From Vezdaea acicularis (Eukaryota), in contig JAPEUI010000029.1 in the NCBI GenBank assembly GCA_026025075.1, positions 124,001-169,199 of the forward strand: 45,199 nt of DNA. Direction: 5' to 3'. Position 1 is the stretch's first letter; every line of letters starts with the position of its first letter. Position numbers and translations under genes: made by a program. Below, one piece after another: positions 18,016-45,199 of the stretch. The notes below the pieces were generated by a model. The model was not told the origin of the DNA and ran no database searches. It saw nothing but the letters and a program-made list of their open reading frames with translations.

Positions 18016-19206
18016 TTATACAACAACCTCTCCACAATCGATGTGAGCAGGAGTCCATGGCCGGTCTTGCGCATTGGGCTCTTCCATATCGCTTGGCACC
18101 CTGTACTCCACAGGTTGGTAGAGGTACCAGCTTTTCAGTGCGGCAATGGCAGCCCTTGTCCTCGCCTCATCCAAACTTGAGCCCGCTGCTTCCCCTAGCT
18201 TGTCCTGGCCAGAATAAACAGCAACTACAAAGACAGGAGTTAGACTGCGCCTCCCGGTCTCGCTCATGATCCGAGCAATAGGGGACTCAAAACCTTCTCT
18301 TGCGCATAGCCGCGAAAGATCTCGTGTAGGTTGTGCGAATTCGAACATGTCTGAGATCTTCAGGTCTCGGGACAAGATATGCGATTTGAAGAAATCTCTT
18401 GACGCGCTCCGTCCAGCATGCAGATATATTGCCCCGAATACAGCTCTTGCAAAGGCTGTTTGGGCTTGGTCAAGTGGAATACCGTCGTCTCGTGGCAGAT
18501 TATCCTGTGATTGTGCTTCCCACCTCGAGGCAAACTCTTCGCCGAATTCATTGTTGTACACCGTCGCGGCAGATATGCTTTTTCGCCATTTCATCTGGAG
18601 CCTTGGCTTCGTGGTTGCTTCTCCTTTCTCGCCGTTCCACGCCATGCGCGGCGGTAGTCTCTTGAATTGTAAGAGAGCTGGTTCTACCTCCCCACCCGGC
18701 TCAGCAGCAGCTTCGACGCCCCATTCTTGGGCGACTAAGGAGAGAGATTTCGGTCCCGCATATGCCCAGGCCGCGTCAAAGAGTACTGACATTGGTAATC
18801 GTGGCCACCGGCAAATTATGTACTCTGCGGTCCAGTAGCCCAGTAAGTGGTTACCTAACTGGGCTAAGCTGGTATTGTTGAAAGCGGGTGAAGGGTCTGC
18901 GGATTTATGTACAAGTGTCCTGGCGAGAGTCTGTAGTGGTAGTTTCGTAGGAAGATTGAGTCGGGCATGCAGTGCAGCTAGGGGTGCGGACTGTAAAGCT
19001 GCTGAGGGCGGTGGAGAAGGGAGTGATGAAAGGTGGTCTGGAGTTATAGGAGCAACTTTAGGTTTGATGTCATTATCTCGAAGCGCAGCTGTTGCAGTCG
19101 ACTGGTGTTGTATGCGAAAGTCCTGGTTCGGGAGTCGAAGGTACGCCTGCCGTATTCGCGGTGACGAGTTTTGGCGGGCCCATCTTTCTATCCGTAACCT
19201 CTTCAT
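18016..19206 (-). CDS. MRPL3: Mitochondrial ribosomal protein mL44 (RNase III-like + dsRBD)
   Basis: Intronless; likely start MKRLRIERW at 19206 (the ORF extends to 19323). LAALHARLNLP, NNTSLAQLG, QPTRDLSRLCAREGFESPIARIMSETGRRS, ALKSWYLY, DCGEVVV. Confidence 0.9.
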   Translation of the reverse strand: MKRLRIERWARQNSSPRIRQAYLRLPNQDFRIQHQSTATAALRDNDIKPKVAPITPDHLSSLPSPPPSAALQSAPLAALHARLNLPTKLPLQTLARTLVHKSADPSPAFNNTSLAQLGNHLLGYWTAEYIICRWPRLPMSVLFDAAWAYAGPKSLSLVAQEWGVEAAAEPGGEVEPALLQFKRLPPRMAWNGEKGEATTKPRLQMKWRKSISAATVYNNEFGEEFASRWEAQSQDNLPRDDGIPLDQAQTAFARAVFGAIYLHAGRSASRDFFKSHILSRDLKISDMFEFAQPTRDLSRLCAREGFESPIARIMSETGRRSLTPVFVVAVYSGQDKLGEAAGSSLDEARTRAAIAALKSWYLYQPVEYRVPSDMEEPNAQDRPWTPAHIDCGEVVV

Positions 19207-19446
19207 GTAAATCACCGTATGCTGATGCAGTGTTTGAGGTGCATTGAATGCAGTATTAAAGATGTCGCGTGGGTTATTATGAGCTCTCCTATGGTTCGTG
19301 TAGAAAAATTTCTGGATCCCCATAGCTGTTTGACGAAGTTCATGCGATGACCTATTACATAAGCAACCCAGGAATCGCCAGTAACCCCATTCGTAGAGCT
19401 CGGGATGTTAACAACACTAGCACCTGAAACTGCGCAATTGATCAGT

Positions 19447-38086: not shown

Positions 38087-39132
38087 TGAATCTTGTGCTC
38101 TTGGCCCATCAAGAGGAGACATTTGTGTTAGAGACTGCCGGAGCAGACAGATAAAACTGGATGAATTTATGAGGAAATGTTATGCCTTGTTGAGATCGCG
38201 TATTGTACGTTGAACGGATCATTATTGTGATTGACTTGATTCAGATTCGGCTACTGAATTATGGAGGTACATGCCCAAAGTATTGTAACACCGCCTTGAT
38301 GGCAGAAAGCGTGTCACTCTAGAACACTATGAGCAGAGGTTTCTGCCCAAAGGGTAGTGTAACAACACTCTGGGCATGTACCTCTATAGGAGCCACGAGA
38401 CTGCCAGCTTTTTGGACGGATCGAATGAGCCGCTCCTTATGTACGCACACAAAGATTGTCAATTATCACACCTACGAACATTGCAGAGTTATTGGCACCT
38501 TGTTCAATATGACCGCCAAATCTTGAGCTCACTTGTTTCACGTCTGATGTCTTGAGGGCCATGCACTTCAAGAGGTTGATCACAATGAAAATTTCTCCTC
38601 TTTCAACATCCTTCATCTTCCTAGTCCACCCTTTAATTGAGATGATCAGCAACAATGAGACGACGACATATAATCTATCTTCTGCTGTAGTTCTGCTTCT
38701 TTTTTTTCGGACTTGCAGAGGTCTCGCTACATCATATGATCCATATTCAGTACAGCAGGGAGACTTCGGGACTTCTGAGTACCCGTGCAGCATAGTCTCA
38801 AGCTGACCACTATCTAGGAGAATGGGAGACCGCCGGTTATGGAACCGCTTACTCCGCCCGCCTGCGTCTATATTATAGGAGTATCCACATTTTTCCTGCG
38901 GTTTTGAAGGTACATAGTATCTTTTGGCCTCTTAATGGAGTATGATACTTCTTTCGCCGACTCTGATAAACCTTTGTCTTGGAAATACTACTTGTTGCTT
39001 GCTATGAAATGATTGACTCTAAACTATTAACACTAGTCTCTCCATTGCTGGATGTTCTACTGGTATCAATTTCCTCCATATTACTATAGCCCGCATCCTA
39101 TTGACGACTCTCTTCTTCATACCCTCGTCTTC

Positions 39133-40323
39133 CTAAAGCTCGAACGTCACCTCCGAAAACTCGGGTACCGGACCTTGGAGCAGCGGTGAAGACTTGCACT
39201 TCAACACCATATCAAGGAACGCGGCAATATATGTAGTGACTATCTGCAGTGCTCGCGCGCCATTGAGGTCTGTGATCAGTAGGTTGGCCGCGACCGTGGC
39301 ATTGAGAACGATCCCAAGCGTCTCCAAGACGATGGGAAAGTCAGAGAAGGTGTAGTGGTTGGAGTTTGCGAGCATGATGTCAAGCTTCCACCCCCGCAAG
39401 TTGTTCCAGAAGTTAAACCATGAGTTGTCTGGATCGAGGGGGGCGCTGTCGTTGGAATGCGTACGGTTAGTGTGTGCCATGAGCATGAATGGTCTATCAA
39501 GCCCCTTCTGCACGACGGGGCCATAAAGATCGCCATCAATGGCTATTCCGCCAGCAATACGGCTGTCGTTGAGCATGACGGCTGCAGTCGCCGCGCCACC
39601 AAGTGAGTGTCCGAACATGGCTACTTTACTTACATCAAGGCCTTGTGAGCAACCAGGAATTAGTTGTGAGACGACGGATGTGTTGCGGAGTTGGTCGAGG
39701 ACGAAGCTCGCGTCTTGCGCGCGGGCAGTGACCGCTATGTTGATGTCGGAAAGGGCAGCAGTGGCGGCAACTGTGGTGTTAAGGAGAATTACCGAACCGT
39801 CTGGGAATTCGACAATGTCAACGTCATAGGGTGCATCAATGGTAACAACGATGTAGCCCGAGCTTGCGATTGTCTGTGCAATGAGACTGTAGAACAGGCG
39901 GGTGGTGGCTTCGGCAGGCGAAAATAGGACGATAGGGAAGTCAGGTGTATATTGGGTCTGGGGTGGTTTGCCAGCCAGTTGAAGGGCAAGTTTCTCGAAG
40001 GTACCGTTTGGGGACATAAGACCAGTGAGGGCTTGCTCCGAGTTATCTTCGTAGAGAGCTGTTTCGGGTGGCATATAACTGACTGGCGTAGTCGGTTCGT
40101 CTGATTTGATAGGATAGAACAAAGATATCATGATACTACGGACTTGAACAGAGGGTGCAAATGGCTGAGTTCTGCTCTCGTCAGTCAACTCCATGGTACC
40201 GACGCCGACTTGGTAAGTGCCATTTGGGTTCGGCAGTAGGACTTGATCGGCGTTGACTGCCGATGAGAATAATGAAATAAGCATGGACATGAAGCAACAA
40301 GACACATGCCGTGAAAAATGCAT
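39133..40323 (-). CDS. Secreted PAF-acetylhydrolase-like lipase/esterase (alpha/beta hydrolase)
   Basis: Intronless 396 aa; signal-peptide-like N-terminus; GTYQVG, SLFYP, IDAPYD, RAQDASFVLDQL, GHSLGG nucleophile, IDG, HYTFSD. Confidence 0.87.
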   Translation of the reverse strand: MHFSRHVSCCFMSMLISLFSSAVNADQVLLPNPNGTYQVGVGTMELTDESRTQPFAPSVQVRSIMISLFYPIKSDEPTTPVSYMPPETALYEDNSEQALTGLMSPNGTFEKLALQLAGKPPQTQYTPDFPIVLFSPAEATTRLFYSLIAQTIASSGYIVVTIDAPYDVDIVEFPDGSVILLNTTVAATAALSDINIAVTARAQDASFVLDQLRNTSVVSQLIPGCSQGLDVSKVAMFGHSLGGAATAAVMLNDSRIAGGIAIDGDLYGPVVQKGLDRPFMLMAHTNRTHSNDSAPLDPDNSWFNFWNNLRGWKLDIMLANSNHYTFSDFPIVLETLGIVLNATVAANLLITDLNGARALQIVTTYIAAFLDMVLKCKSSPLLQGPVPEFSEVTFEL

Positions 40324-40491
40324 GCTCGAAACCTAGTTGAACAATATGAATATGAGATTGAAGTTGACCGAGAATTTTGGCTTTTGAATATTGAGTTTTG
40401 TTTTGCATTTCTGTTCGAGCACAAGGAGACGCTGCAGCCCTTTTATACAAAGTGACCTGGACATCATGAGCTGGTAGGAAATTTGCACAAT

Positions 40492-40770
40492 GACAGACCA
40501 TCCTTGGTCTGGCGGACGCGGACTACCAAGTAGCTGAAGCGTAAGCATTGTTGCAACTGCTCAACAAGCCCCGTTGCTGAACATAGATCGGTCCTCTGCT
40601 ACTCGCCAGTTTTACGACGATGGATCCATTCTTGGTCTAGCGGCTGCTGCGTGCCGATCAAACATAAGCACTGTTGCGCTTGCCTAATACCTCACCTTAA
40701 AGATTAAATCTGACCTCTAGTACCCCGCATCTTTACGAAAATGGACTATTTATGGTCTAGCGGCTACCGA
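40492..40770. repeat. Degenerate tandem repeat, period ~120-128 bp, ~2.3 copies
   Basis: TGGTCT(A/G)GCGG at 40505, 40633, 40753; TAAGCA(T/C)TGTTGC at 40542 and 40665; TTTACGA-NN-ATGGA at ~40611 and ~40732. Confidence 0.65.
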
Positions 40771-41521
40771 AACCAAGAGATCCTTCTTCAGGGTCTGAGA
40801 CTCGCAGGGCGTCGATGTATGGGACGACAAGATCATGTCTAGTCGATTGGAGCTGGGCACAAGGAGATGGTTCGAACCCGATTCACAATGACGACGATAC
40901 GTCGTCTTGTATTAGACGATAGGCTTTATCTGGTTACATTCGTCGCTATTCTAGCCGTAATTGTGGGATGACGAAAAAGTCTGTTGGCAGCTGACGTTTC
41001 TCAACCTGTGGCACAGGTGTGTTTGAAGTAGCTAACTCAATGAGGCTGTAGTTGCGAAGCGGGTGGATCGCCTCTGATGCATAAGCTAGGCGAGCCTGAC
41101 TAGGCGGGTACACGGGGTCGGACCTATGTCTGTTCCGCCAAGAAGTGGCGTTCGATTTTCCTGAGTTTCCACCGTTCACTCCACCACTTCAAACAATCTA
41201 ATTAATAGCAGAAGGCATCCTATCCTACCATGAGATGCCTCTGTACTTTTTTAAATTCCAATCGCATCTGTGGTTGTGGTGCTGAAGTATTGTGAGAATT
41301 GGGCGCGAAGCCTTGGCGGAACAGACATAGGTCACACCCCGTGTACGCACAAGGCAAAATGATACTGCCAAGCAAGTTCTAATGCCTTTGACAGCCCAAT
41401 GAAAAAGTGGGACACCCCTCGAAAGCTTAAGCTTGCGCACCTTGATCAATTGAACATGGTCCATCTGCCGTCTCGAGTCTCTTTGTCGTGGCTACAGAGA
41501 GAGACTTGTAGATTTTCAATA

Positions 41522-41830
41522 TGTTATAGCCACTCGTCCACTATCTGAGAGGAATCATGTCCATACGTGTGAGGCGCGTGCGTATGGGCAGGCAACAGAC
41601 TAGTCTCACTTCGGATGGTCGCATGCGTATCGCATGCGAGTCGCAGGCGGTAGTCAATAGTAGATAGTATTCAATAGATGTCTCTTAGGATTGATACGAT
41701 TGAATACTAAGGAGCTATTCTACAGTGCTTCCCCGCTTTCCTATATGACGGTGGTCACATGACGTATACCTAGCGCTTGCCAAGCGCAGTCGAGTCGCAG
41801 GCTAAGTCACGGGAAGGTAGGTTCGTGACA
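41522..41830 (-). repeat. Putative 3' LTR (~309 bp)
   Basis: Starts TGTCACGAAC directly after the PPT (41830) and most plausibly ends ...GGCTATAACA (41522), an imperfect terminal inverted repeat. The end is inferred because the 5' LTR is not in view. Confidence 0.65.
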
Positions 41831-41845
41831 ACTACCCCCCCCTTT
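41831..41845 (-). other. Polypurine tract (plus-strand primer) of the retrotransposon
   Basis: Minus strand AAAGGGGGGGGTAGT immediately precedes TGTCAC. Confidence 0.8.
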
Positions 41846-42236
41846 ATGCCTGCGGTCCCCGCAGGGCTTATTGTGGCTGATAGGTAGGTGTCAGGGCACG
41901 GGGTGTCCAGACACTGCAAGGACAAGGCGTCCTGGGACGGTTTTATGATGAAAGAGTTGCATTCATTCTATCTAGGGGGATATGCTATATATACGGGTCA
42001 TCACGTGCCCGGTCACGACTGCCCGGTCAGGACAGCGCGGTAAGCGCTGTCCGTTGCAGGGCAGTCGCATGCCTCATAGCGCTGCCCCTATGGGCAGGCG
42101 CTATAAGGAAGCTGCGTCTGTTAGTATATATCGTCGCTACTCCCTGCCCCTATCCTGCTGTCCCACAACAGATTGCCCCCTCCCGAAAAGATATCGTCCC
42201 GATATCCTGTAGTAGTGCCGGAGTGCCATGGCAGAC

Positions 42237-44510
42237 TTATTCCTCTGGAGGCGGTGGCCTTGGAGAGTCAGCGTAGAGGTCATCGTCCGGTAACGCTGCT
42301 TCCTCTTCTCCATTGCCCTCATCCTGATTGTCGTGACCCGTGGGCATACCGGGGGAACGTGGACTGACGTTATTGAACGTCTGAGTCGAGGAACGTCTAT
42401 GGTCAGGGTGTACAGACGGGCCGGGATCGTTGATTGGCTGGAAGCTGGTTGTCTGCGGCAGGACACGATGAGGGGGTGAAGAGGACGGAGCGGGGGCAGC
42501 TTCACGCTGACGCTGACGCTTTTTTCGAGCACTCCGCGGAGCTGGATCCGGTTCCAACTGACGGTCAAGCTCTTCCAGACGTGCCATACGGGTTCTTACC
42601 TCTTCCTTGATAGCTTTTGATTCTTCAAATAGCGCTTTCTTTGATACCTTGTTCAGACGTGATGAACCGCCCTTTGGAGGAGATGAAGCTTGCCGTGGTT
42701 CATGTGTGGCGATATTGGGGCGTGGCTGGGGTTCCAATGACTGTAGGGGTGGAAGACGACGTTGACTAGGGAATACCGTCGAACGCGTTGTATCTGCCGA
42801 TCGACGGGATGCTGCTGGCTTTTTCGTTTGAATGCTTGCATCCTTTCGTCCTGGACCTGGGGGGGTGACGGCGACGACAAAGTTAGGCACGGCATATTGT
42901 CCTGGTCCAACAGATGGTTGTGTCCTGTCTATGCTGGATGCCGGTCCGGGAAGAAAACAGTCTGCCACTGCAAGGTCATCGGGGGGAAGGTCCTGCAGCT
43001 GATCATTCGAGTGGGCGCTTCCAATTGGTAGGTTGTAGTGTCTCGGGATTTTGCCATGAAAATCAGCACCTAGCAGCTTGATGGTGTCCACCACCCCGAC
43101 TCGTCCGTCCACGAAGAAAAATCCTGCCCCTCTCGATACGTAGTTCTTGGCCAGCTGAGCGTCCTTTCGGAAGTTATTTGGCCAGTACTTCAGCCTCATC
43201 CGGTAGGATACCATTGACATGACGACATGCCCCGTAGCTCTGTCGCTCAGGTTAACGTATACCGGGAAGGTCATCAGTTTCCTGTCGTCTGATGAGTATC
43301 CCCGCGAGTCTAGTATAGGCAGGGGGCCCCTCGGGTCGTACAGGAGCCAGTTGGTACCGTTTTTATCGCCGTGTCCGTCAGTAGGTTGCCATGTCCCAGC
43401 GGGGAATTGAGCGCCTGGGGTCCAGAGAGGGTTGGTTCCTGCCCTAGCGGTACGTCCTGTAGTTGAGACCTGGGTGAGAGCAGTGGAGACTTGTTCGACG
43501 GGTTTGGAGGGCGTGGTTGTTGGCGTCGGGGACCGAGATGTCGCAGCCAACGGTCTTGTACGCGGTACAGACAACGTGTCTGGGCTCACAAATGTATCAG
43601 GTTCCCTTGTGTCTTCTCGAGTGCTTGTTATAACAGCATTTATTGTTTCAGACCCGCTTGAGCTTGAGGACGAAGACATGGAGGATGTTATGGACACGGG
43701 GTGTACGACAGAGGCTGTTGGCTGGTGCGTCGCGGACCGTCTGACCTGACGAGGTGGCGCCATGGTTGATTGTACTGGCGACAGGATGGGTTCAACGCTC
43801 TGAATAGCCACGTTTGCATCTGCGCGAGCTATCTTGCCCGATACCGTGTCATTGTGCTCTTCTTCTGGATCCATAGCCTGGGTTGACCCGGATGGGGACA
43901 GTGATCCCATATCCATGGCAGACATCTTCTCGCGCTGGAGCTTGGCCTTTGTAACGTTTAAGGCGTCCGCCCAATTGCCAAACTCGGGTACCGTTGCGAG
44001 AGGATCGTCATAAGCTCCTGTCCCTTCTTCTGCTTCGTCGAAGGTGGGGTATCGTACCAATGTAGCTTCGTGTTCCCAGGACAATCGGTATTGAAGCTTT
44101 GTCTCGATGCCGTCTTCCTTGAGAGCCTGTATGAGGATCTTATTCTTGATCAGGATGTCTTGTTTCAGTGCTCTACCAATCTGGCCATCCGTCTTGTCGC
44201 AGGTGGGGAACGTCTCCTTGAAGAGTTCAACGATGTTGTCGTCAAACTCTGGCTGCTTCTTGATGTTCCAGCCGCGTCTAATAGCACGACAAGGCCAGTC
44301 GTTTGGGTCGTTTTCGATCGCGAAAAGTCTCTTAGCCATCTCACGGTCGGAAGGGCTAGAGAATAGACCAAAAGTTGCGTAGATTGCGCCCTCGATGTGA
44401 CGATCCCTCCAGGAAGGAGGCCAAGCTCTTCGGACGGGTTTAAAGTCATATTTGGCCCACTTGACCGGCGGGACGTTTGTATGCAACGAAGCCATTGCAC
44501 CGGGGGCCAT
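42237..44510 (-). CDS. Retrotransposon-borne additional ORF (757 aa), unknown family
   Basis: Uninterrupted ATG-TAA ORF between the pol stop (44814) and the PPT (41845), in the same orientation as pol; no domain recognised. Confidence 0.8.
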   Translation of the reverse strand: MAPGAMASLHTNVPPVKWAKYDFKPVRRAWPPSWRDRHIEGAIYATFGLFSSPSDREMAKRLFAIENDPNDWPCRAIRRGWNIKKQPEFDDNIVELFKETFPTCDKTDGQIGRALKQDILIKNKILIQALKEDGIETKLQYRLSWEHEATLVRYPTFDEAEEGTGAYDDPLATVPEFGNWADALNVTKAKLQREKMSAMDMGSLSPSGSTQAMDPEEEHNDTVSGKIARADANVAIQSVEPILSPVQSTMAPPRQVRRSATHQPTASVVHPVSITSSMSSSSSSSGSETINAVITSTREDTREPDTFVSPDTLSVPRTRPLAATSRSPTPTTTPSKPVEQVSTALTQVSTTGRTARAGTNPLWTPGAQFPAGTWQPTDGHGDKNGTNWLLYDPRGPLPILDSRGYSSDDRKLMTFPVYVNLSDRATGHVVMSMVSYRMRLKYWPNNFRKDAQLAKNYVSRGAGFFFVDGRVGVVDTIKLLGADFHGKIPRHYNLPIGSAHSNDQLQDLPPDDLAVADCFLPGPASSIDRTQPSVGPGQYAVPNFVVAVTPPGPGRKDASIQTKKPAASRRSADTTRSTVFPSQRRLPPLQSLEPQPRPNIATHEPRQASSPPKGGSSRLNKVSKKALFEESKAIKEEVRTRMARLEELDRQLEPDPAPRSARKKRQRQREAAPAPSSSPPHRVLPQTTSFQPINDPGPSVHPDHRRSSTQTFNNVSPRSPGMPTGHDNQDEGNGEEEAALPDDDLYADSPRPPPPEE

Positions 44511-44813
44511 CGTAACCGGACAGGCTGAGGTGATAAACCGGTATGTTAAATGGTATGTTTATTACGACGGGGCAAGCCCCGCGGTAGTGCTATAGACGTC
44601 AAGAGAATCACCTTGTCGAAGGGTGAGGTGGTGTAAGAATGAAGGATAGATGAGGTGTAGCGACGAAAGGTGAGGTGAGATGAAGCGAGCTACAGCTCAG
44701 CGCAAGTTAAACTAACTATCTAAAATAAGCGAATTCGTAAGCGATATCAATATAGGGGTAACTATCTCAAGATAGTAGCCCCTTTTCAGTATTTCTTAGG
44801 GGATACGACACAG

Positions 44814-45199
44814 CTAACGCCGTGTCTTTTTGAACTTCCGGACCAGCTGAGGGACGTCTGCTGCTATGTTCTCTGCAGGCTCCCAGGTTGGACCGTCGTA
44901 TCCTTCCCACTTGATCTTATAGAAGTCTTTCCCTCCTCGTCTCTCTTGGCCCAATATCCGTTCGACAACCCATTCCTCCTGGCCGTCCACCAGGAGAGGA
45001 CCAGGGGGTGGCAGCTCCCTGCCCTGCGTCAACGACTTGTCGGGCGCCTGTTCCAGGTGTGTCACCGAGATGACTGGATGGATGTCCTGAAGTTCCGGTG
45101 GCAATTCAATCTCGTAGGCTAGGCGTCCTACCTTGCTTTTGATACGGAACGGCCCCATCTTTACTGGGGACAGTTTGCCCGCTCCGGCCAACCTATAGC
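44814..45199 (-). CDS. pol: Pol polyprotein C-terminus: integrase GPY/F region + chromodomain (partial)
   Basis: KLSPVKMGPFRIKSKVGRLAYEIELP...IHPVISVTHLE, then EEWVVERIL...YKIKWEGYDGPTWEPAENI. The frame is open to the window edge. Confidence 0.93.
   Translation of the reverse strand, partial: YRLAGAGKLSPVKMGPFRIKSKVGRLAYEIELPPELQDIHPVISVTHLEQAPDKSLTQGRELPPPGPLLVDGQEEWVVERILGQERRGGKDFYKIKWEGYDGPTWEPAENIAADVPQLVRKFKKTRR

Follow-up and report, generated by a model that had tools for sequence, protein, structure and literature searches.

The locus and its additional gene

The window analysed here is a stretch of 45,199 nucleotides from the lichen-related fungus Vezdaea acicularis (assembly GCA_026025075.1, contig JAPEUI010000029.1, positions 124,001 to 169,199), and all coordinates given below are positions within it. 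Towards one end it contains the 3' part of a long terminal repeat (LTR) retrotransposon which is read on the minus strand, and it is within this part, between the end of pol and the repeats that follow, that a large additional open reading frame (ORF) is found. The frame runs from an ATG at 44510 to a TAA at 42237, giving 757 codons without interruption, and is in the sense orientation after the pol stop, as an earlier note made from the letters alone had described. The pol frame enters from the window end and closes with a TAG (44814-44816). In the 127 residues before this stop Pfam recognises SH3_Tf2-1 (E 6.8e-13, above the cut-off) and Chromo (E 2.4e-11, 43.8 bits against a cut-off of 25.1), which identifies the frame as the C-terminal end of a Ty3/gypsy integrase with a chromodomain, the mark of a chromovirus. 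Only this integrase end of pol is present in the window; the full order of reverse transcriptase, RNase H and integrase is seen in a relative, P0014, which is considered below.

The ORF is in the same phase as pol and the 303-nt spacer between them is crossed by six in-frame stops; read-through from pol into the ORF is therefore excluded. Within the spacer there is a pyrimidine-rich (C/T) tract of 73 nt at about 44617-44689, of a kind found at fungal transcription starts, an AATAAA at 44558-44563, and a branch-point-like TTTAAC at 44545-44550 followed by a CAG at 44525-44527, 14 nt ahead of the ATG. The spacer is, on these motifs, a candidate internal promoter or a candidate 3' splice site. 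On the other side of the ORF the first repeat, repeat A, begins 67-103 nt past the stop codon, so that a separate sense frame lies between the pol stop and the probable 3' LTR, which is the arrangement of a 3' additional ORF (3' aORF). The features are collected in Table 1.

Table 1. Features of the element and of the adjoining repeats, in window coordinates.
Feature	Position	Strand	Basis
pol 3' end: integrase C-terminal SH3 (Tf2-1 type) and chromodomain	44814..45199	-	Pfam; remainder of pol past the window end
pol-ORF spacer, 303 nt	44511..44813	-	sequence; about 99% identity in the bridging X3 record 24 and X4 record 31
additional ORF (3' aORF), 757 aa	42237..44510	-	frame, translation, homologues
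conserved N block, aa 58-200	43911..44339	-	54% identity to P0011; helical by AlphaFold2, low confidence
conserved central block, aa 356-545, W/Y/F/G/P-rich	42876..43445	-	best conserved part of the family
conserved basic S/P/K-rich motif, then amphipathic coiled-coil-like helix, aa 611-660	42531..42680	-	58% identity to P0011
GGGAGGGGG (42176-42184) and a purine-rich run of 25 nt (42140-42164), candidate polypurine tracts	42140..42184	-	sequence
repeat A, probable 3' LTR of the ORF-bearing element, about 280 bp	41889..42170	-	contig ends
stretch with G-rich tract 41835-41845, 58 nt	41831..41888	-	sequence; X3/X4 copies do not continue into it
repeat B, LTR-like, 263 bp, TGTCACG...CCTCACA	41568..41830	-	contig boundary

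A gene family with conserved modules

Relatives of the ORF product are few. A word-indexed protein search gave three at E<=0.001 among 8000 scored candidates, and HMMER, run exhaustively over 1.84 billion representatives, found seven, with no orthologue in other fungi. Of the 13 cluster members listed, four are named, and all four are hypothetical proteins of the Vezdaea acicularis metagenome-assembled genome (MAG), where these paralogues sit on contigs of 34-405 kb. The other members are ENA or Logan proteins, mostly on contigs of 1.4-3.6 kb, together with P0011 on one of 9431 bp. Searches for related loci by protein patterns gave 405 pattern matches in metagenome contigs and 79 in genome contigs, none of them confirmed.

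The close copies of the ORF are 78-92% identical to it. Full-length open relatives include one of 728 aa (78% identical), two of 746 and 768 aa (39-44%) and one of 634 aa (about 32-39%), and the frame is kept open in diverged copies, which are conserved by module. Independent gene calls begin within a few residues of one point, and therefore the ATG at 44510 is the start of the family. The tail of P0003 is divergent and probably frame-shifted. Taken together, these comparisons show the ORF to be one member of a gene family, not a frame open by chance, and that the family is multi-copy, has its own conserved start codon and remains open in copies down to 39-44% identity.

The product has a mass of about 83 kDa and a pI of 8.6. 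Its arrangement is as first described from the letters: an aromatic-rich N block, a linker rich in serine, threonine and proline (44% S+T+P over aa 201-355), a second aromatic-rich block and a short helical and basic stretch, with a basic region at aa 546-620 (pI 11.9) and an acidic C-terminal tail. Conservation follows this layout, since identity with P0011 is 54% over aa 58-200, 25% over 201-355, 55% over 356-545, 29% over 546-610, 58% over 611-660 and 28% in the tail (661-757). Three modules are thus conserved in the family, with the linkers free to vary. Within the central block identity is 90-93% with close copies and 44-55% with distant ones, and 26 columns are invariant across eight sequences.

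What sort of protein might this be? The maximum 19-residue Kyte-Doolittle mean is 1.15 in the ORF product (P0001) and no higher than 1.07 in P0002, P0011 and P0007; neither a transmembrane (TM) helix nor a signal-peptide-like start is found on this scale, the N-terminus not being hydrophobic. The product is thus soluble by this measure and is not an envelope protein, because it has no hydrophobic segment and no signal peptide, and in this respect the earlier note read it correctly. The same note called the protein nuclear on account of a nuclear localisation signal (NLS), RSARKKRQRQR. That label now looks weak, as the RKKRQRQR stretch is altered in the 78%-identical paralogue and absent in the 39%-identical one. 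The conserved basic motif at aa 611-635 is the better NLS candidate.

Family and fold assignments were sought by several routes. With Pfam the ORF product gives only two sub-threshold matches, Rubella_E1 (14.9 bits, cut-off 27) and SARA, while P0002 and P0004 give none, and no family is matched by more than one of 12 family members at E<=5. No transposase, recombinase or other Pfam domain is present in the ORF product. The best E in a PDB sequence-profile search is 0.26, and the ESM Atlas returns no usable match to aa 350-545. AlphaFold2 gives no fold for the central block (predicted local distance difference test score, pLDDT, 29.5) and a helical model for the N block (pLDDT 52.9, predicted template modelling score 0.49). 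With this low-confidence N-block model, the VIA wide fold search reaches a best Z of 3.8, none of 48161 chains standing at Z>=5, and Foldseek finds nothing in the PDB at E<=0.001. DUF6818, suggested for the N block by the ESM Atlas (aa 20-200, best score 0.81, oomycete clusters), was rejected: shuffled sequences reach that level one third of the time, and there is no Pfam DUF6818 match. Finally, when P0001 is compared by BLASTP with P0014, whose 466 residues ahead of the reverse transcriptase are included, the best E is 1.3, and the ORF does not appear to have been copied from the gag-side N-terminal region of the element itself.

Linkage of the gene to the retroelement

The attachment of the ORF to the element rests on the tight layout in the window, on contigs that bridge the junctions and on the recording of P0011 and P0014 each on an ENA contig of 9431 bp. 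The bridging contigs come from four moss-metagenome runs of one study (X1-X4), aligned to the window at no less than 80% likeness. Contig depth in these runs is not copy number, and stretches that lack X3/X4 cover are left without interpretation.

At the upstream junction, the end of pol, the spacer and the start of the ORF are bridged by X3 record 24 (44450-45174, 8 differences) and X4 record 31 (44326-45174). At the downstream junction, the end of the ORF and repeat A are joined in X3 record 19 (41889-42546, 19 differences) and X4 record 26. The host flank at 39000-41000 is barely present in X3 and X4 and, where it is present (record 17), is only about 80% alike; for this reason the X3/X4 contigs are taken to derive from a relative of the source organism and not from the same locus. 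Other copies of the element therefore carry the ORF in this same position, and its assignment to a chromodomain Ty3/gypsy element, which the earlier note had made, is upheld both by the integrase domains and by these recurring junctions.

The third line of evidence is from a diverged subfamily. A protein search with the 127-residue integrase end gave three matches among 297 candidates, the best of which, P0014, is a protein of 1371 aa that is 81% identical over the 127 residues available and has the domain order RVT_1, RT_RNaseH, Integrase_H2C2, rve, SH3_Tf2-1, Chromo. For P0014 as for P0011, the ORF homologue, the record gives one ENA contig, in both cases of exactly 9431 bp, from which we infer that the two lie on one contig of about element length. 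When each is compared with the window, the ORF is about 44% identical (P0011) and the integrase end 81% (P0014). On these comparisons the divergence of the ORF appears to be much greater than that of the integrase end with which it seems to travel.

At the upstream junction it was also observed that the contigs of X1 and X2 which cover the end of pol (records 8 and 16) both begin at 44552, 42 nt before the ATG of the ORF. This position may be a point at which copies diverge, some of them perhaps lacking the ORF, or it may simply be an assembly break.

The downstream repeats and the 3' LTR

On the element strand repeat A reads TGTTG...CTGACA, with the TG...CA ends of an LTR, and contains a TATATATAG box. 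Its 3' end at 41889 is well defined. Its 5' end lies somewhere between 42134 and 42170, with purine-rich tracts before both candidates, and in one X2 contig a different purine-rich run stands just upstream of 42134. Past 41889 the flanks are unlike the window and unlike one another in six X1 contigs, five X2 contigs, one X3 and one X4 contig, the consensus agreement of the X1/X2 flanks being 0.48.

X3 record 19 and X4 record 26 run unbroken from the ORF through repeat A, and carry 15 unmatched letters past 41889 which on the element strand read TAT and then TGGTAGC. TGGTAGC is complementary to the conserved 3' end of the eukaryotic initiator tRNA-Met, which primes Ty1 and Ty3. When an assembly merges the two LTRs into one, the path leads from the LTR into the primer-binding site (PBS), and the X3/X4 letters fit such a path, as a lead only. 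There are no tRNA genes in the window, so none is available for comparison with TGGTAGC. An 18-mer of the LTR was found at seven loci in the metagenome contigs, each with a match of only 19-27 nt, which is chance.

Repeat B, beyond the G-rich stretch, has its boundary at 41567/41568 in X1 record 3, X3 record 18 and X4 record 25. Local alignment of A with B scores 22, compared with 17.3 +/- 2.2 for shuffled sequences (maximum 28), and hence reveals no relatedness. Repeat B probably belongs to another element, and the stretch between A and B is probably the internal 3' end of this second LTR element, which hosts the first. Most simply, the element with the ORF would have inserted into the other one immediately ahead of the latter's polypurine tract (PPT). 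Contig depth over A and B in X1 and X2 is above that over the ORF, which, depth not being copy number, is a hint only.

The anatomy given in the earlier note was different. There the 3' LTR was placed at 41830-41522 (or 41830-41568 with the boundary found here), primed from the G-run at 41835-41845, which would make A a foreign solo LTR or an internal repeat. Much of what that proposal describes is indeed in the sequence: the G-run 41845-41835 is followed by a TG at 41830, AAAGGGGGGGG with a TG four bases on being a textbook PPT and LTR start, and B does end in TG...CA, while the start of A remains fuzzy between 42134 and 42170. It is the assignment that is probably wrong. The X3/X4 copies run from the ORF into A and depart from the window at 41889, likeness stopping at the same point with varied flanks in the X1 and X2 contigs; no target-site duplication (TSD) surrounds A as it might a solo insert (CAATC before, CCTAC after); and B ends at 41568, the repeat contiguous with the ORF being A. 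We regard repeat B as an unlikely 3' LTR for this element, and 42170-41889 is more likely to be that LTR than 41830-41522.

Weighing the interpretations

The interpretation favoured here takes the ORF as a 3' aORF, a third gene carried by the element itself, in a chromodomain Ty3/gypsy lineage so far seen only in Vezdaea-like fungi, and we place the probability of this at about 0.7. Several points tell against it. The 5' LTR, PBS and TSD lie past the window end and the element is never seen whole. The co-location of P0011 and P0014 is deduced only from the same source and an equal size of 9431 bp, and a search for fused pol-ORF proteins gave no match among 7067 candidates. No pol from the Vezdaea acicularis MAG was retrieved (three matches among 297 candidates, none from NCBI), which leaves the adjacency of the four MAG paralogues to a pol hypothetical. 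The absent MAG pol could be due to a common fungal annotation pipeline that discards gene models resembling transposons. The seven runs considered include none of RNA, and no match by homology or fold points to a function. The selection test described below draws on 35 of 636 differences, a best-supported subset, and its P of only about 0.016 is modest.

Might the ORF instead be a host gene, either specific to Vezdaea or transduced by one element lineage, which has come to lie amid retroelement debris such as a pol fragment and solo LTRs? The neighbourhood gives this idea some substance, for at least three different repeats pile up within 41070-42170, the MAG paralogues lie on long contigs from which no pol was recovered, and the third-position GC content (GC3) of the ORF, 0.54, falls inside the range of 0.45-0.61 for host genes. 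Indices of repeat-induced point mutation (RIP) and of codon usage do not discriminate, with a TpA/ApT of 0.70 and no RIP-like dinucleotide bias. Against it, the pol-spacer-ORF and ORF-repeat A junctions recur in contigs of a related organism, a second, diverged subfamily appears with pol on the 9.4-kb contig, the spacing is tight on both sides (303 nt after pol, about 67-103 nt before A), and the 1.84 billion representatives hold no orthologue from another fungus. A host origin is in our view improbable.

A further question is whether the frame does anything at all, since it could be decaying or neutral and open only by recency. Comparison of the window with the metagenome contigs gives 636 differences; of the 40 examined, 35 are in coding sequence, 16 synonymous and 19 non-synonymous. 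The mutation spectrum predicts 9.7 synonymous changes (one-sided P about 0.016) and the ratio of non-synonymous to synonymous polymorphism (pN/pS) is about 0.38. That this ratio derives from few sites, that close copies are still 78-92% identical and that the tail of P0003 is probably frame-shifted would all be compatible with a frame of no function. Against this, chance cannot keep 757 codons open, and frames of 728-768 codons persist at 39-44% identity with block-wise conservation, so that neutrality is very improbable.

That the ORF lies in a mobile element of its own, inserted into the 3' region of the chromovirus, as the earlier note allowed might emerge, is barely credible: a 13-nt inverted pair (42131-42143 / 44654-44666, 92% complementary) does bracket the ORF, but these 3.9 kb contain seven inverted pairs with sizes of 12-21 nt and it is within chance, no convincing terminal inverted repeat or TSD surrounds the ORF, the product holds no transposase, recombinase or other Pfam domain, and the junctions are common to other copies.

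As a separate observation, the differences between the window at 39000-45199 and X1-X4 are strand-asymmetric and dominated by transitions, the counts in X1 being C>T 116, T>C 104, G>A 78 and A>G 39.

Relationship to known accessory genes

The usual picture of a fungal LTR retrotransposon is of a machine built from gag and pol, and, to our knowledge, the extra frames that have been drawn in figures for fungal elements have never been characterised. The closest architectural parallels are in plants, where almost 4000 additional ORFs have been described in LTR retrotransposons, mostly domain-less and some with predicted nuclear signals (PMC11728184). The plant 3' aORFs of Athila/Tat, Retand, RIRE and others resemble the ORF as extra frames between pol and the 3' LTR, and their proteins are likewise lineage-specific, fast-evolving, mostly domain-less and often endowed with disordered stretches. 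They differ in that the present ORF is in a fungal chromovirus and is without the TM segment found in the env-like plant aORFs, and no sequence relative of it was found among them or outside Vezdaea.

In fungi, Novikova et al. 2010 drew an 'add. ORF' of unknown function in some full-length Gypsy elements, which, like the ORF here, is an extra frame beside gag and pol; the text gives no position, size or sequence for it, and the likeness is therefore by description only (PMC2864245). Muszewska et al. 2011 mention extra domains mainly in complex nested elements (PMC3248453). Given these fungal drawings and the abundance of additional ORFs in plants (PMC2864245 and PMC11728184), the earlier suggestion that the element might define an undescribed retroelement group was overstated. 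No description of the ORF protein, or of a characterised fungal chromovirus aORF, was found in the literature, and among the titles listed for 'Vezdaea' all are taxonomic or floristic. The ORF is, then, a 3' aORF of a fungal chromovirus, a known architecture, which encodes a new orphan protein family.

A nearer match in protein design is CERV, the non-envelope accessory protein of the Caenorhabditis elegans Ty3/gypsy element Cer1, in which flexible linkers join folded domains and which bears a candidate NLS and a helix like a leucine zipper; CERV differs greatly from species to species and has no homologues beyond a narrow host group (PMC10309623). The ORF product is similarly element-encoded, modular, helix-bearing, host-restricted and divergent. 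The differences are that CERV is made from a five-exon spliced mRNA sharing exons with gag (PMC10309623), whereas the ORF is one uninterrupted frame after pol, and that the two share no sequence similarity, with RNA export and nuclear location predicted here only by analogy. A Rev/CERV-type protein would be marked by residence in the nucleus, by binding of the unspliced element RNA and by being needed to export it; in the ORF product only the conserved basic motif and helix at aa 611-660 are seen. Retroviral and errantiviral env genes lie, as the ORF does, between pol and the LTR that follows, whereas the ORF product is without a signal peptide, TM anchor, fusion-protein fold or above-cut-off Pfam match. 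The VANC proteins of the Arabidopsis VANDAL elements, with which the earlier note drew a comparison, are similar only in idea, as fast-evolving, transposon-borne accessory proteins that could counter host silencing; they belong to Mutator-like DNA transposons, a different transposon class in a different kingdom, and no homology to them was detected.

A possible function and its significance

How might such a protein be made and what could it do? Because six stops separate the ORF from pol, translation would need a subgenomic mRNA, which could either begin at the C/T tract of the spacer or be spliced to the CAG that resembles an acceptor site, 14 nt ahead of the ATG. The protein would then self-associate through its conserved C-terminal helix and act within the cell, its target being either the element's own RNA or chromatin or a factor of host defence. 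Our tentative guess, with about one chance in three of being correct, is that it regulates the handling of genomic RNA or evades silencing, CERV/Rev-like in manner without kinship. The guess is prompted by the greater divergence of the ORF relative to the integrase end (about 44% against 81%), since accessory proteins that confront host factors usually diverge fast. A part in integration targeting or in structure is less likely. A broader proposal would make the family a fungal class of accessory regulators, the first in a fungal LTR retrotransposon, in which expression from a subgenomic mRNA, nuclear entry, oligomerisation through the helix, RNA export or a shield against RNA interference and heterochromatin, and arms-race divergence all combine; we consider this doubtful.

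The ORF offers a clean case of a large, intact and family-conserved extra gene that belongs to no known family and apparently evolves much faster than the integrase end. Should its product act in the handling of element RNA or against silencing, it would provide a genetic handle on the persistence of retroelements in fungi, and if it does nothing measurable it is still a marker for a genus-restricted element lineage. There is also a lesson for annotation, in that a transposon-borne protein has been entered in a public MAG as an ordinary hypothetical gene.

Neighbouring genes and minor repeats

The remainder of the window is ordinary gene-rich fungal chromosome, with genes for MCM, mannosyltransferase, CAP, Uds1 and a PAF-acetylhydrolase-like hydrolase. 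The last of these is the host gene closest to the repeat cluster, a 396-aa ORF at 39133-40323 (minus strand) with a hydrophobic N-terminus. It matches PF03403 (PAF-acetylhydrolase/alpha-beta-hydrolase, E 2.4e-16) and is about 99% identical in run X1 (record 1). Beside it, in intergenic sequence at 38260-38388, there is an inverted repeat with 49-nt arms that are 80% complementary and 31 nt apart.

At 18019-19323 (minus strand) an ORF combines an RNase III-like stretch, below the cut-off, with a dsRNA-binding motif (PF00035, E 1.3e-6), and could on this basis be an RNT1- or Dicer-related gene. It is about 23 kb from the retroelement and its nearness is probably coincidental.

Between the hydrolase gene and repeat B lies a third repeated stretch, 41070-41567, for which cover in X1 and X2 is above that of the single-copy flank. 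It contains a 53-nt inverted repeat (41108-41160 / 41294-41346, 81% complementary), and a 1717-nt X1 contig shares 41319-41567 at 98% before passing into other sequence. The stretch may be a foldback element or one resembling a miniature inverted-repeat transposable element (MITE).

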